Shown piece by piece: positions 9,287 through 17,114 of a stretch of DNA of 64,000 nucleotides (its first letter is position 1; every line of letters starts with the position of its first letter). The position numbers and the translations under genes are program-made. Source of the DNA: an uncultured delta proteobacterium. Its GTDB lineage: Bacteria > Myxococcota_A > UBA9160 > SMWR01. The notes beneath the pieces were generated by a model. The model was not told the DNA's origin. It searched no databases and was given only the letters and a program-made list of their open reading frames with translations. The stretch is taken from the NCBI GenBank assembly GCA_963832165.1, contig CAWHTE010000001.1:544001-608000 (forward strand), written 5' to 3'.

Positions 9287-9325
9287 ACCGGCGCTCGAAT
9301 CGCGTCACCCCGGTTAGTCCGCGCC

Positions 9326-9757
9326 TTGGATCTCTCCCTCCTACCGGCCGTCAACGCTTCGCTGAACGCGGTGGCGGCGCTGTTGCTCCTGCGGGGTCGG
9401 AGACTCGCACGCGCGAGACGCATCGATGCGCACCGGCGCACGATGCTGTGCGCGTTCGCGGTGTCGACGCTCTTCCTGGCGCTCTATCTGCTGCACAAGA
9501 TGGCGCGCGGGTTCGAGAGCACGACCCTGCACGTCGGGGGGGCGGCCAAGGCCGCCTATCTACTGATGCTCGCGAGCCACGTCCTGCTCGCGATGACGGT
9601 GCCCGTGTTCGCCATCCAGCTGATCCGCCACGGCCTCGCGGGCCGGATCGAGCAGCACCGGCGGCTCGCGCGGATCGCGTGGCCGATCTGGATCTACGTG
9701 TCGCTGACGGGCGTGCTGATCTACCTCTTGCTCTACCAGTGGAATCCCGGCGCCTAG
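9326..9757 (+). CDS. DUF420 family membrane protein (oxidase-assembly associated)
   Basis: LPAVNASLN, HRRTM, HRRLARIAWPIWIYVSLTGV motifs; likely TTG start. Confidence 0.85.
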   Translation: MDLSLLPAVNASLNAVAALLLLRGRRLARARRIDAHRRTMLCAFAVSTLFLALYLLHKMARGFESTTLHVGGAAKAAYLLMLASHVLLAMTVPVFAIQLIRHGLAGRIEQHRRLARIAWPIWIYVSLTGVLIYLLLYQWNPGA

Positions 9758-9976: not shown

Positions 9977-10648
9977 ATGGACCGAATGAACGCGAGGACT
10001 CTGCGGCTCGAGGCATTCACGGTCTTCTTTCTCTCGCTCGCGCTCGCCGTTGCGCTGCCCGCGGCGCGGGCGTTCGCCCAGGACGTCGCGCGCGGCGAGG
10101 AGCTGTACCAGCTCTGCCAGCAGTGCCATTTGGAGAACGGCAGCGGCAATCCCGTGGCCCTCGCGCCTGCGATCGCCGGGATGCCCGCGTGGTTCGTGAC
10201 GGGGCAGCTGCAGAAGTTCCGCAGCGGCGGACGCGGCACGCACTTCGACGACATCTCCGGGATGCGGATGCGGCCGATGTCGATGTGGCTGCGCAGCGAC
10301 GAGGACGTCGCGAATGTCGCCGCCTACGTCGCATCGCTGCCGAAGGTGCACCCCGCGCCGACCTTGAAGGGTGGGGACGCCGCGGTCGGCAAGGAGAAGT
10401 ATTCGCTCTGCGCGACCTGTCACGGCGTGAACGGCGAGGGCAATCAGGCGCTCAATGGATCACCGCTTGCAGGCACGAGCGACTGGTATCAGCTCACCTC
10501 GCTACAGAAGTTCAAGGCGGGCGTGCGCGGTGGTCCCAAGGACCCGACCGGCGCGTTGATGAGGGGCATGGCGACCAGCCAAATCCCCGACGAGCAGACG
10601 ATGCTCGATCTGATCGCCTACATCAGCACACTCACCCCGACGAACTGA
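9977..10648 (+). CDS. Di-heme cytochrome c4/c553
   Basis: Signal peptide, CQQCH and CATCH, PAIAG/PLAG...QL.KF repeats; start 9977 or 9986. Confidence 0.88.
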   Translation: MDRMNARTLRLEAFTVFFLSLALAVALPAARAFAQDVARGEELYQLCQQCHLENGSGNPVALAPAIAGMPAWFVTGQLQKFRSGGRGTHFDDISGMRMRPMSMWLRSDEDVANVAAYVASLPKVHPAPTLKGGDAAVGKEKYSLCATCHGVNGEGNQALNGSPLAGTSDWYQLTSLQKFKAGVRGGPKDPTGALMRGMATSQIPDEQTMLDLIAYISTLTPTN

Positions 10649-10660
10649 GGAGCGCGTCCC

Positions 10661-10765
10661 ATGGGCAAAGCCTACGAACCCGATGAGCTCGCCACCCGGA
10701 CCTTCGTGGTGAGCATCGCCGGCATCGCGGCCTTCATCGCCGTGGTGTTCTTCTTCGTCCTGTAA
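10661..10765 (+). CDS. 34-aa single-TM small protein (MGKAYEPDELATRTFVVSIAGIAAFIAVVFFFVL)
   Basis: GAGGAG RBS, GC3-rich codons, fills the gap between cytochrome c and coxB; TAA abuts the coxB RBS. Confidence 0.7.
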   Translation: MGKAYEPDELATRTFVVSIAGIAAFIAVVFFFVL

Positions 10766-10776
10766 GGAGGCACACG

Positions 10777-11463
10777 GTGATCGAGCGCTACCTCATCCAG
10801 GCGTCCACCTACGCCAGCGACATCGACGGCCTGATCATCCTGATCGGATGGATCGTGGGCGTCTGGTTCCTGATCGCCGAGGGCGTGTTCTTCTATCTGA
10901 TCTTCCGCTACCGCCATCGCGATGGGCGCAACGGCGAGTACATCACGGGTGAGGAGAAGCACCAGAAGCGCTGGATCACGATCCCGCACGCGCTGGTGCT
11001 CGTGTGCGACATCTTCATCATCGTCGGCGCCGTGCGCGTCTGGTACGACATCAAGCAGAACCTCCCGCCCGCGGACGCCACGGTGCGGATCGTCTCGCAG
11101 CAGTGGGCGTGGAGCTTCGTCCAGCCCGGCCCCGACGGGCAGCTCGACACGGCCGACGACATCAAGACGGTGGACGACCTGCACGTCGAGGTGGGCAAGA
11201 CCTACCACTACCAGCTCGAGTCGCGCGACGTGCTGCACGACTTCTCGGTGCCGGTATTCCGGCTCAAGCAGGACGCGATTCCGGGCCGCGTGATCACGGG
11301 CTGGTGGAAGGCCACCAGGACCGGGTCGTACGACATCCAGTGCGCGGAGATCTGCGGCATCGGCCACGGGTTGATGGCCGGGCGGATTCACGTCGAGTCG
11401 CCCGAGGAGCACGCGGCCTGGATGCAGGCGAACGCGCCCGCGACTTCGCTGGCGGCTCGCTGA
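10777..11463 (+). CDS. coxB: Cytochrome c oxidase subunit II
   Basis: Two TM helices, QQWAW, DVLHDF, CuA motif CAEICGIGHGLM; AGGAGG RBS. Confidence 0.95.
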   Translation: MIERYLIQASTYASDIDGLIILIGWIVGVWFLIAEGVFFYLIFRYRHRDGRNGEYITGEEKHQKRWITIPHALVLVCDIFIIVGAVRVWYDIKQNLPPADATVRIVSQQWAWSFVQPGPDGQLDTADDIKTVDDLHVEVGKTYHYQLESRDVLHDFSVPVFRLKQDAIPGRVITGWWKATRTGSYDIQCAEICGIGHGLMAGRIHVESPEEHAAWMQANAPATSLAAR

Positions 11464-11486: not shown

Positions 11487-13207
11487 ATGGCTGAGAAGAT
11501 CGCCGGGGCTCACGGGCACGATCACGCGCACGACGAGCACGGGCACCACGTCGAGACGTTCTGGAGCAAGTACGTCTTCTCCACCGATCACAAGATGATC
11601 GCCATGCAGTACATGTTCACGGGCATGTTCATGGCGCTGATCGGCGGGTTCTTCGCCTACACGTTCAGCATGCAGATGGCGTTCCCGGGCGAGTCGGTGC
11701 CGATCTGGGGCGGCATCGTCACCCCGGCGCAGTACAACGCGCTGATCACCAACCACGGCGCGATCATGATCTTCTGGGTCGCGATGCCGGTGCTGATCGC
11801 GGCGTTCGGGAACTTCCTGATCCCGCTGATGATCGGCTGCGACGACATGGTGTTCCCGAAGATCAACCGGCTCAGCTACCAGATCTTCCTGCTCTCGCGT
11901 GCTCGTGCTGCTCGCTTCGTTCTTCGTCGAGAACGGCGGCTTCGGCGGGCGCCTGGACGGTCTATCCGCCGCTGTCGGCGAAGGCCGAGTACAGCCTGAC
12001 GCCGCTCGGCTCGTCGCTCTTCGTCCTCGCGGTCGCGCTCGAGTTCGTCGCGTTCCTGCTCGGCGGCATCAACTTCGTCACCACCGCGATGAACTCGCGC
12101 GCGCCGGGCATGAAGCTCTACGACATCCCGATCGTGGTCTGGATGATCGTGATCGCGAGCATCCTGTTCATGGCCTCGGTCGGCCCGCTGATCGCGGGCG
12201 CGATCATGCTGTTCATGGACCAGAACCTCGGCACCGCACTTCTTCGATCCCAACGCGCGGCGGCGACCCGATCCTCTGGCAGCACCTGTTCTGGTTCTTC
12301 GGGCACCCCGAGGTGTACGTGGTGCTGCTGCCCGCGATCGGCATCACGGCCGACGTGATGTGCGTGTTCGCGCGCAAGAAGCTGTTCGCGTACCGCACCG
12401 TGCTGTACACGACGTTCGCGACCGGCGTGCTCTCGCTTCACCGTGTGGGCGCACCACCAGTTCATCGCGGGCATCGACCCGCGCATGGCGCACATCTTCA
12501 CGATCACGACGCTGTTGATCTCGATCCCGATCGCGGAGATGATGTTCGTGTTCATCGCCACGCTGTACGGCGGCGACATCCGCCTCACCACGCCGATGCT
12601 CTGGGCGCTCTCGTTCATCGCCGAGTTCCTGATCGGCGGCGTCACCGGCATCTTCCTGGGCGCGAGCGGCGCGGACATCTACTTCCACGACACCTACTTC
12701 GTGCTCGCCCACTTCCACTACACGTTCTTCCCGATCGCGATCATCGGTGTCTACGCGGGCGTGACGTTCTGGTACCCGAAGATGTTCGGGCGGATGATGA
12801 GCGACACGCTCGGGAAGATTCACTTCTGGGTCACGATCATCCCGTTCAACTGCATCTTCATCCCGCTGTTCTTCACTGGGCCTCGCCGGGCAGCACCGCC
12901 GCATCTACGACTTCCGCAACTTCCCGGAGCTCGCGCAGTACCAGCCCGTGCGCGTGTTCGCGACGGCGATGCTGATCATCATGCTGGTCTCCCAGCTCGA
13001 TCTTCATCTTCAACTTCTTCTGGAGCCTGCGCCGCGGGAAGGAGGCTGGGCCGCAACCCCTGGAAGTCGAACACGCTCGAGTGGACGACCGAATCGCCGC
13101 CCGGCCACGGCAACTGGAAGACGCTGCCGACGGTGTACCGCGGCCCCTACGAGTACAGCGTGCCGGGTCGCAAGGAAGACTTCTGGCCCCAGAACGTTCC
13201 CAACTAG
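11487..13207 (+). CDS. coxA: Heme-copper oxidase subunit I (A-family-like; split by about 7 apparent sequencing frameshifts)
   Basis: STDHK, NHG, DMVFP, WFFGHPEVY, WAHH, HDTYFVLAHFHY, RR and NPW motifs across successive frames. Confidence 0.93.
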
Positions 13208-13229
13208 GCGCAGACGCCTTGGAGCGCGC

Positions 13230-13801
<572 letters not shown>

Positions 13802-13818: not shown

Positions 13819-14167
13819 ATGTCCGAACACGCCGCAAGCCGCTCACGAGCATCCGAACTACATCAAGATCTGGGGCATCCTGCTCGTGCTGCTCTGCGTC
13901 AGCGTCGCGGGCCCGTTCCTCGAGATCAAGGTCGTCACGCTGATCACGGCGTTCGGCATCGCGATCGTGAAGGCGTACATGGTCGCGAAGAACTTCATGC
14001 ACCTGAACATCGAGCGGCAGTACGTCATCTACCTGATCATGACCATGCTCGTGTTCGTGCTGCTGTTCTTCGCGGGCACCGCCCCCGACGTGATGAAGTG
14101 GGACGGCGACAACTGGGTCAAGCCCAAGGTGGAGCAGGCTTCGTCGCACGCCGTCCACCACGAGTAG
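13819..14167 (+). CDS. Cytochrome c oxidase subunit IV (caa3/CtaF-like); frameshift near start
   Basis: YIKIWGILLVL, KAYMVAKNFMHL motif; three TM helices. Confidence 0.8.
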
Positions 14168-14180
14168 AGGCCGCCCCCCA

Positions 14181-14774
14181 TTGGCCCGCTCGACCGCCTC
14201 CCTCCGCGTGATCACCGATCCGCGGCCCCCGCCGGCACTGCCGAGCGCGGTGCTCGGAATGCTGATCTTCGTCAGCACCGAGGTGATGCTGTTCGCGGGG
14301 CTGATCAGCGCGTTCCTGATCCTGCGCGCGAGCCCGGTCGGCGGCGTGTGGCCTCCGCCGGGCCAGCCGCGCCTCCCGCTCGAAGAGACCGCGATCAATA
14401 CGCTCGCGCTGATCGCGAGCGGATTCATGCTCTGGCGCGCGCGCCGCGCGTTCGCCGAATCGCACGCGCGCGCGCAGCGCCCGCTCGCGATCGCGATGGC
14501 CCTCGGCGCGTTCTTCGTGCTGTTCCAGGGCTACGAGTGGGTGATGATGATCGGGCAGGGCCTCACCCTGCAGTCGAGCAATCACGGCAGCTTCTTCTAC
14601 CTGATCGTGGGCCTGCACGCCGCGCACGCGGTGGCCGGGCTCACCATGCTCTCGTGGGCGTGGTGGCGGCTGCGCGGCGGATTCCTCGCCAGCAGCACCT
14701 TCGGCGCAGCGCAGGTGTTCTGGTTCTTCGTCGTCGGGCTCTGGCCGATCCTCTACGCTCTCGTCTACACGTGA
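14181..14774 (+). CDS. Second subunit III-like protein
   Basis: LGMLIFVSTEVMLFAGLISA, QGYEW, GLHAAH, FWFFVVGLW. Confidence 0.85.
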   Translation: MARSTASLRVITDPRPPPALPSAVLGMLIFVSTEVMLFAGLISAFLILRASPVGGVWPPPGQPRLPLEETAINTLALIASGFMLWRARRAFAESHARAQRPLAIAMALGAFFVLFQGYEWVMMIGQGLTLQSSNHGSFFYLIVGLHAAHAVAGLTMLSWAWWRLRGGFLASSTFGAAQVFWFFVVGLWPILYALVYT

Positions 14775-15043
14775 GTCGATTCGCGCTCTCGATCGCTCTG
14801 CTCTGGTGCGCCGCGGCGCTGCCCGAGGCCGCAGCCGCGTGTTCGGTCTGCTACGCGGGAGCCGAAGAGAGCCGCAAGGCGTTCTTGTTCACCACCGTGC
14901 TGCTCTCCTTGTTGCCGATCGGCATGTTCGGGGCGCTCGGTTGGTGGGTCTGGCGATACGTGCGCGAGGTCGAAGCCGCCTCTGCGCAGCCGACGACTGC
15001 ACCGATCCCGGGCGAGCGCACGAGCTCCACCTCGAGCTCCTGA
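14771..15043 (+). CDS. Small exported/membrane CxxC protein at end of the cox operon
   Basis: GTGA coupling, signal peptide, ACSVCY immediately after cleavage site, one TM helix. Confidence 0.65.
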   Translation: MSRFALSIALLWCAAALPEAAAACSVCYAGAEESRKAFLFTTVLLSLLPIGMFGALGWWVWRYVREVEAASAQPTTAPIPGERTSSTSSS

Positions 15044-15516: not shown

Positions 15517-16459
15517 GTGCTGCTGCTCCCGAGCTCTTCGCTCCCGCTCCGCTGCGCCGCCTGGCTCGCGGCGCTCGTGTTCGCGGGCGCGGCGCACGGT
15601 GTCGTGATCGATTCGGGGAACGGGACCGGCAACACGACGGCGCCCGCCGACGACTTCGGGTTCGAGAACGTCGGCGTCACCGATACCGGGCTCAGCGGCG
15701 TCTATCTCGGCGACGGCTGGGTGCTCACCGCGAACCACGTCGGCGCGCGCCCGATCACACTTCTCGGTGTGACCTATCAGGTCGTGATCGGATCGGGCGT
15801 CCAGCTCGCGGATCCGAGCAATCCGACCAACCCGCCGCCCGATCTCTACGTCTATCGGATCAACGGCTATCCGCTGTTGCCCGCGATCGTTCTGTCGAGC
15901 GCTACGCCGGCGATCGGGGAAGTCGTCAGCTGCCTCGGCTACGGCTGGACGCGCGAGGCCACGCAGACCACCTGGAGCGCCACCTGGCAGGAATCGCCGC
16001 CGTCGCCGCTCGTGGTGTACCGCGGCTACAAGTCGATCTTCAATGCGACCCGGCGTTGGGGTACGAACGCCGTGACCGCGGTCGGCGGCGACGTGTTGGA
16101 TACGCGCTCGATCGAGCTGAGCTTCGACCAATTCGGCGGCACCACGCACGAATCGCAGGCGGTGGTAGGCGACTCGGGCGGAGGCTGCTTCGCGAAGCGC
16201 GGTTCGACCTGGGAGCTCGTCGGCATGATGTTCGCGAACCTGACGTACGGAGACGGTCCCGGGCCTCAACCCGATCAGCCCCGCAACACCGCCGTGTTCG
16301 GGAACGCGGCGGTCCTCGCCGACATCGCGTACTACCGCCACGCAGATCGACGCGCTCACGCCGCGCGCCCGGGGCGATCCCCGCGCTGCCCGCGGCCGGC
16401 GCCGCCGCACTCGCGGCGCTGATCGCGCTCGCCGCGCGCAGCGAGCGCTGCGGCGCTGA
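15517..16459 (+). CDS. Secreted trypsin-like serine protease with probable IPTL-CTERM-like anchor (frameshifted C-terminus)
   Basis: WVLTANHV and GDSGG motifs; IPALPAAGAAALAALIALAA and a short basic end in shifted frames. Confidence 0.75.
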
Positions 16460-16499: not shown

Positions 16500-16576
16500 G
16501 CGCCGGTAGCTCAGCTGGATAGAGCATCAGGCTTCGAACCTGAGGGTCGGGGGTTCGAGTCCCTCCCGGCGCGCCA
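16500..16576 (+). tRNA. tRNA-Arg (TCG)
   Basis: GCGCCGG acceptor stem, TCAGG-CTTCGAA-CCTGA anticodon arm, GGTTCGAGTC, CCA. Confidence 0.96.
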
Positions 16577-17043
16577 GTCCACGCGAGCAACGAATCGTTC
16601 CGACCTTCGAGGGTCGGGGGTTGCTCAGCTCGGCTTCGCCTCGCTGGCGTCTCGGGCCGCTGCGCGGCCCGAGTGCGAGTCCCTCCCGGCGCGCACGCGA
16701 GCAACGAATCGTTCCGACCTTCGAGGGTCGGGGGTTGCTCAGCTCGGCTTCGCCTCGCTGGCGTCTCGGGCCGCTGCGCGGCCCGAGTGCGAGTCCCTCC
16801 CGGCGCGCCAGTCCACGCGAGCAACGAATCGTTCCGACCTTCGAGGGTCGGGGGTTGCTCAGCTCGGCTTCGCCTCGCTGGCGTCTCGGGCCGCTGCGCG
16901 GCCCGAGTGCGAGTCCCTCCCGGCGCGCACGCGAGCAACGAATCGTTCCGACCTTCGAGGGTCGGGGGTTGCTCAGCTCGGCTTCGCCTCGCTGGTGTCT
17001 CGGGCCGCTGCGCGGCCCGAGTGCGAGTCCCTCCCGGCGCGCC
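16577..17043 (+). repeat. tRNA-linked tandem repeat: 4 units with alternating 120/114-bp period, each ending in the tRNA 3' end
   Basis: CGAGTCCCTCCCGGCGCGC at 16556 (tRNA), 16676, 16790, 16910, 17024; units identical apart from a 6-nt indel and C>T at 16996. Confidence 0.95.
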
Positions 17044-17114
17044 GGCGATTCCCGGTAGCCACCCCCGATTCTGGTCAGCCCAGAGCGATCAGTGGACCGA
17101 GAAATGCCAGCAGG

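Follow-up and report, generated by a model that had tools for sequence, protein, structure and literature searches.

How can an A-family heme-copper oxidase work once the residues of its canonical K-channel are gone? The question is raised by an oxidase operon in a stretch of 64,000 nucleotides (the window) from an uncultured delta proteobacterium, whose subunit I carries Met in place of Lys362 (R. sphaeroides numbering). Introduced into A-family oxidases, the K362M exchange nearly abolishes turnover, and the available part of the literature describes it as inhibiting electron transfer. The operon runs from a cytochrome c gene through a small ORF, subunits II, I, III and IV and a second subunit III to another small ORF, and the features are as follows:

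9320..9757, + strand: DUF420 membrane protein (PF04238, E 3e-35), 5′ of the operon and adjoining it in some relatives
9989..10648, + strand: diheme c-type cytochrome with two PF00034 stretches
10661..10765, + strand: 34-residue single-helix ORF, possibly a small subunit
10777..11463, + strand: subunit II with intact CuA site (PF00116; alignment to 1M56_B)
11487..13207, + strand: subunit I, A1-type, K-channel lost, eight +1 insertions in the assembly
13230..13801, + strand: first subunit III gene, two +1 insertions (near 13340 and 13552)
13819..14167, + strand: subunit IV, caa3 type (PF03626; TIGR02229 above cut-off)
14181..14774, + strand: second subunit III gene (PF00510, E 6e-21)
14771..15043, + strand: small membrane ORF of no known family, conserved at the operon end

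In the core of the clade described below, the diheme cytochrome gene stands 5′ of the subunit II gene in 15 of 16 loci (L035-L050; L047 is cut), and its product is the likely electron donor to CuA. The two small membrane ORFs, neither of a known family, are candidates for extra subunits. The first has no Pfam match, is matched by tblastn in 5 of 20 loci (L035-L054) and has a near-identical copy in the same-genus genome G001; the second is matched in 12 of these 20 loci, and its atlas matches are unnamed clusters only. Downstream of the operon, an ORF at 15517-16422 resembles by eye a secreted trypsin-like serine protease (TANHV, GDSGGG) and is apparently frameshifted near its end, and at 16500-17044 a tRNA-Arg(TCG) precedes a tandem array, about four copies of a unit of 114-120 bases that starts with the tRNA-Arg(TCG) 3′ end.

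The subunit I gene is spread over three frames, and the motifs quoted in an initial annotation of this DNA were all found where it had placed them: NHG starts at 11751, EFVAFLLGGIN at 12041, HPEVY at 12304, PAIGITADV at 12331, WAHH at 12446, ISIPIAEMMFV at 12518, FIAEF at 12614, HDTY at 12686, AHFH at 12707 and RRIY at 12897. The R. sphaeroides numbering, assigned there by eye, was borne out by a codon check and by phmmer, which aligned both the helix VII-XI piece of the window and the intact same-genus orthologue (against 1M56) to R. sphaeroides subunit I without gaps. The changed positions are:

12041..12055, + strand: helix IV, upper D-channel, S197E (codon 12041-12043), S200A and S201F
12349..12435, + strand: S299A and H300D, and the helix VII hydroxyl stripe T315, T319, T323 and S327
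12518..12550, + strand: helix VIII, A356S, T359I, G360A, I361E (12536-12538), K362M and S365V
12623..12625, + strand: helix IX, L390E (alignment and codons)

The core alignment adds changes that had escaped the initial annotation, namely A356S, A319T, I323T, S327, N140R, W144Q, S425F/Y/V, L426P and P480H. In subunit II, Gln occupies the position of E101 (codon 10963), accompanied by a new His (10987) and a new Asp (11008) in helix 2. A structure model of subunit I (pLDDT 88) superimposed on R. sphaeroides subunit I with Z 52 and an rmsd of 1.5 Å. Compared with the A1-type aa3 oxidases of R. sphaeroides (1M56/2GSM) and P. denitrificans (1AR1), at 40% identity, the enzyme shares the fold, the six His metal ligands, the cross-link Tyr288, E286, D132/N121/N139/N207, H411/D412, R481/R482 and a CuA subunit II, all subunit I residues that had been reported as retained and are so in the alignment to R. 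sphaeroides. Its clade has lost K362, T359, S365 and S299, does not conserve E101(II), has gained E197, E361, E390, S356, T319, T323 and the subunit II His/Asp, and is altered at S200A/S201F, S425F/L426P and P480H. Among PDB entries, the helix VII-XI piece is matched best by 3OM3, the R. sphaeroides K362M mutant, which likewise has Met at 362. In contrast to the clade enzyme, which has lost T359, S365 and S299 and is under purifying selection, the mutant keeps all three and is crippled.

As assembled, the gene differs from the intact one of G001 (87.5% DNA identity) by eight single-base insertions, near 11898, 11946, 12236, 12258, 12433, 12874, 13000 and 13054, and by no single-base deletion in the conserved part of subunit I. 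Together with the two in the next gene, the insertions are confined to about 11,900-13,550. Eight frameshifts in the assembly, concentrated in this operon while rpoB of the source genome is intact, could betray a decaying pseudogene. We consider decay hardly credible, as all eight are +1 and the aligned in-frame pieces contain no in-frame stop, share 467 of 517 residues with G001 and give a dN/dS of 0.15. Moreover, short-read contigs of near relatives lack the extra bases. In public run X1, a 158-base contig covers 160 window bases across the first two insertions (8 other letters differ), a zero-mismatch contig of a relative covers 153 window bases with 151, and contigs in runs X19 and X2 are without the bases at 12238, 12255 and 13340. 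The contigs from X1, X2 and X19 belong to near relatives and are not reads of the source sample; none of the public sequencing runs searched held more than 0.18 of the window's words. Contigs in the RNA runs X15 and X19 are likewise those of relatives, at 85% likeness, and indicate neither transcription nor habitat. Genome-wide sequencing error was rejected as the cause, since rpoB is intact and insertions and deletions are balanced outside the operon (+1 against −1, 18 vs 22 in 20,541 aligned bases, compared with 25 vs 11 in 4,950 in the operon). From this pattern, we read the eight frameshifts as local +1 assembly errors. As the substitutions recur in intact relatives, decay is refuted as far as they are concerned, and the earlier claim that frameshifts do not explain them holds.

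The relatives are numerous. At 78% identity or more, a match was found in 45 of 60 related genomes searched, and helix VIII reads P-I-A-E-[M/L], instead of the normal PTGxK, in all 29 relative loci fetched. Among the best 80 of 599 stretches in a scan of named genomes, at least 16 loci matched at 70-81% identity and at least 4 at 51-59%. The record titles of 16 loci name Myxococcota, Bradymonadia, Gemmatimonadota, Bdellovibrionaceae, Eisenbacteria, Puniceicoccaceae and others, and the clade as a whole comprises Myxococcota-like MAGs, Gemmatimonadota, Bdellovibrionota and others. One member (L043) lies on a contig that bears the title of a Klebsiella pneumoniae MAG, probably through wrong labelling or binning, and another, one of the 29 loci and otherwise intact (L018, G032), has the CuB ligand motif WAHY rather than WAHH, an error or a damaged copy.

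For the tree, 229 of 262 collected subunit I sequences were aligned, 33 being dropped for incomplete coverage; the set consists of 43 core, 8 basal, 52 other lysine-less and 126 lysine-bearing sequences. Clustering at 50% left the core essentially as one cluster. In trees built without the channel columns, the core forms a clade (100/99), core plus basal form a clade (100/99), and the basal sequences are paraphyletic, so that the core nests within a basal grade. The whole group is nested among lysine-bearing A1 sequences, in a tree without B, C or NOR outgroups, and in PDB searches the G001 orthologue matched B-family structures at E of about 1e-9 vs 1e-121 for A1. The divergent A-family clade without a canonical K-channel that had been proposed is thus real, conserved and, on the tree, a monophyletic group of A1-type aa3 enzymes. 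With 12 changes of state at position 362 on the 229-sequence tree, lysine loss is recurrent in the A-family. For instance, two Acidobacteriota sequences (L091, L096) lost K362 separately and recently within a lysine-bearing clade and have Thr at 356. A lysine-less clade of Verrucomicrobiota/Fidelibacterota (L089, L097, L098, L101, L103, L109, L114) is a possible sister group, not well supported (85/73); it likewise lacks K362 and has S356, and differs in the absence of E197, E361 and E390.

Throughout the core, K362 is replaced by Met or Leu, T359 by Ile, Leu or Val and S299 by Ala, Ile or Val, with K362, T/S359 and S299 each in 0/43, and S365 is hydrophobic in nearly all. Glu at the E101(II) position remains in 3/23 core sequences vs 14/15 of the outgroup. 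At the level of sequence, the K-channel has been dismantled as a unit. E197 is found in 51/51 core and basal sequences, all lysine-less, and in 0/126 lysine-bearing ones; core and basal were first chosen by E197, so its count inside the group is circular. Conservation of the three altered helix motifs was confirmed, with E197 in 43/43, E361 in 42/43 and D/E390 in 37/43 core members, which for the most part belong to a single order and do not count as independent. Thr stands at 390 in the other 6, and at least one of 361 and 390 is acidic in 43/43. Basal sequences have E361 in 0/8 and D/E390 in 1/8. A His after the helix 2 Pro of subunit II occurs in 23/23 core, 0/6 basal and 0/15 outgroup sequences, and an Asp seven residues past it in 29/29 core and basal and 0/15 outgroup sequences. 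Ser/Thr356 is present in 51/51 core and basal sequences, 34/52 other lysine-less and 1/126 lysine-bearing ones. From these distributions on the tree we infer that loss of the lysine, E197, S356 and the subunit II Asp came first, followed by E361, E390 and the His. Two other features were discarded as marks of the clade: an acid at 300, which is D/E in 62/126 lysine-bearing sequences, and a Glu in helix 1 of subunit II, which is not clade-specific. The ligands, Y288, E286, D132, N121, N139, N207 and H411/D412 are invariant in the 43 core sequences where tabulated, and all of these residues are likewise conserved in 120 further proteins (Y288 in 119/119 covered). These 120 had been ranked on residues 320-420, and their 120/120 at 361, 362 and 390 is selection-biased.

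What kind of enzyme is this? The six His ligands and the helix VI cross-link Tyr in HPEVY, the D-channel residues with E286, a CuA subunit II, subunit III and heme A synthesis genes are those of an A1 oxidase, whereas the canonical K-channel set (K362, T359, S365, S299, E101(II)) is absent, S200 and S201 are replaced, and the G001 orthologue scores 579.5 bits against TIGR02891 (CtaD_CoxA equivalog), below the curated cut-off of 670.75. Judged by its residues, the clade is not a canonical two-channel A1 member, yet it falls phylogenetically inside A1. A C-family (cbb3) enzyme was rejected on account of the Tyr in helix VI, the CuA subunit II partner and the lack of a CcoN model among the NCBIfam matches; the NCBI label "cbb3-type cytochrome c oxidase subunit I" on several clade proteins is wrong for an A1 enzyme with a CuA subunit II. 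A heme b-only (bb3) enzyme was rejected because ctaA and ctaB are present in the source genome.

The source genome (G000, 89% complete) contains one PF00115 gene, ctaA, ctaB and NrfD-family genes, and gave no match for a bd oxidase or a bc1 cytochrome b. Two NrfD-family genes lie about 2 kb apart (C11:73886-77107), and ctaA was matched in two pieces (C11:163107-163907); NrfD-family genes without bc1 cytochrome b would fit alternative complex III. In five relatives chosen for having a single PF00115 match (G007, G047, G111, G118, G142; 90-96% complete), the clade gene is that match and no bd match was found; many other relatives have further PF00115 genes. The clade gene is thus apparently the only terminal oxidase found in these six genomes, at a completeness of 89-96% at which a second may be unassembled. 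Because it is the sole terminal oxidase found, the enzyme very probably functions as an aa3-type O2 reductase. With the same high confidence, full conservation of the ligands suggests that electrons would pass from the diheme cytochrome c to CuA, heme a and the heme a3/CuB site with its His-Tyr cross-link.

A different ion or substrate chemistry, which the initial annotation had also raised, found no support, given the O2-reducing site, CuA and heme A synthase, the lack of a NOR signature and the failure to find Na+-NQR or Rnf. That the new carboxylates bind Na+ in a sodium pump, or serve NO reduction, is very improbable. Three buried Glu and the Ser/Thr residues could ligate a cation, and the c subunit of the ATP synthase has GIGQG and ES motifs; it continues, however, with Ile after ES, where Na+ rings carry Thr, and the source genome has no NQR or Rnf match. 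NO reductases (cNOR, qNOR, eNOR, sNOR) resemble the clade enzyme in that glutamates are buried within their heme-copper fold. The cross-linked tyrosine, which the clade enzyme keeps together with HPEVY, CuA and a full A1 D-channel, is missing from them, and the accessible text of PMC11214002, which sets out the families, defines them by this lack and by a Glu ligand to the non-heme metal; an NO reductase was rejected. Further partly available sources (PMC8361435, PMC12901375, bioRxiv 10.64898/2026.07.10.737566) served as background only.

How, then, might protons reach the active site? Rewired proton delivery had been suggested, by the D-channel alone or along a Glu-lined path. The canonical K-channel is indeed gone, and a single path through all three glutamates is unlikely: S197, S200 and S201 are D-channel corners in the available part of PMC10341450, which places E197 off the path of E361, and E197 also occurs in the basal grade, where E361 is absent throughout and D/E390 in 7/8. 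We tentatively favour, without calling it probable, a reading in which an intact aa3 cytochrome c oxidase of the A1 type would reduce O2 without a K-channel, the protons of active-site reduction entering by a remodelled D-channel instead. E197, in place of the S197/S200/S201 hydroxyls, might act as a second protonatable relay beside E286. Being later on the tree, E361, E390 and the His of subunit II would tune or stabilize helix VIII, helix IX and subunit II rather than form the primary fix. In support of this, E197 goes with lysine loss in the whole group (51/51 vs 0/126), and in a separate group of lysine-less sequences a Glu is new at position 207 of the D-channel (12/52 vs 1/126). On the other hand, an added Glu is no general requirement, as none of the D-channel positions checked carries an additional acid in 38/52 other lysine-less sequences. 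S201F could make the channel narrower, the Ser-to-Asp mutant described below also speaks against this reading, and the near-invariance of E361 in the core and the Ser/Thr gained by the K-side cavity fit a rebuilt K-side.

Such a K-side path, a close rival although in itself rather unlikely, would lead from D/E300 along a Ser/Thr stripe (T315, T319, T323, S327, T352, S356) to Y288. On this reading, E361 paired with the subunit II His would be the protonatable element replacing K362. Of the six positions 315, 319, 323, 327, 352 and 356, picked after the data had been seen, 5-6 are Ser/Thr in 42/43 core sequences and at most three in lysine-bearing ones; A319T and I323T each occur in 42/43, and residue 323 is Ile in 126/126 lysine-bearing sequences. 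P315, G327 and A356 are, with S365 and E101, K-channel corners in the available text of PMC10341450. The distribution of S/T356, the acid at 361 or 390 in every core member and the restriction of the subunit II His to the core point the same way. One core member without E361 (L046, 7226-9728; its record title lacks "MAG") carries a Glu three positions ahead of the conserved His in helix 2 of subunit II, possibly a swap across the subunit I/II interface. Nevertheless, enzymes of the basal grade do without both E361 and the His, residue 390 is Thr in 6/43, E361 points 100 degrees away from K362 on an ideal helix, and the hydrophobic side chains of I359, M362 and V365 fill the old path. In independent pairs, S/T356 changed in the same direction as lysine loss in 4.4/9 and in the opposite one in 0.0 (median p 0.125, not significant), and convergence of the helix VII hydroxyls (315, 319, 323, 327) was rejected for want of any trend. 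Ser/Thr356 as such accompanies the loss of K362 across unrelated clades (85/103 lysine-less vs 1/126 lysine-bearing).

E197 might also lower coupling, by analogy with a laboratory mutant. We take the serine analogous to bovine residue 153 to be S197 of R. sphaeroides. According to the available text of PMC7341133, the analogous residue separates the D-channel from an overlying cavity filled with water and lies 10 Å away from the equivalent of E286. The same text relates second-hand that a Ser-to-Asp exchange at this position of the R. sphaeroides enzyme abolished pumping, with proton uptake from the periplasm. In the clade, the position of H195 above E197 is Ala or Gly, with S201F below, and E197 could open a periplasmic route that supplies reductive-phase protons from outside, pumping being reduced or absent. 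We regard this as improbable: full conservation of D132, N121, N139 and N207 implies a D-channel in use, poor coupling would be costly for a sole oxidase, and the mutant result is second-hand, its assignment to S197 being tentative.

Lysine loss itself is not new, as it is already in print for the A-family (PMC8239418; bioRxiv 10.1101/2020.03.01.968255); the replacement residues are the novelty. The supplement of PMC8239418 (Degli Esposti 2021) has a table of numerous lysine-less subclades of family A (Methylacidiphilum, Elusimicrobia, Bacteriovorax, the Acidithiobacillus rus operon, CyoCAB), and the available part of the bioRxiv study states that oxidases of acidophilic iron oxidisers may lack the K-channel and keep the D-channel. 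As in our clade, K354 (P. denitrificans) is hydrophobic in the tabulated subclades, E78(II) is often lost and the D-channel is kept; the accessible text also describes a "KC/hybrid" class with helix VII Ser/Thr and a subtype a-III with a two-COX3 operon, both resembling the clade. No row of the table (Fig. S7) combines Ala, Met, Ile and Val at S291, K354, T351 and S357, so that the clade is set apart from the tabulated subclades by its residue row; the table has no columns for 197, 361 and 390, and for the oxidases it covers, the available part of the supplement mentions no significant alteration of the D-channel. The literature searched, with subscription papers largely outside its coverage, yielded no description of the clade's residue set.

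A possibility somewhat short of probable is a proton-pumping A-family oxidase, the sole terminal one of neutrophilic soil and sediment bacteria, that takes in all its protons through a two-glutamate D-channel and/or a new E361-His-Asp(II) relay across the subunit interface; if true, the design would be one uncharacterised so far in the superfamily. It has long been asked why A-family oxidases require a second (K) channel, and the consensus, in the available text of PMC10341450, is that K-channel proton delivery needs K362. A whole clade with K362M and loss of the other channel residues seems to depend on this enzyme for respiration, and is a natural test case. E197, S356, T323, T319, E361 and the subunit II His are candidate suppressors of K362M, E197 may be the natural counterpart of a laboratory uncoupling mutant, and the basal grade would represent an evolutionary intermediate.
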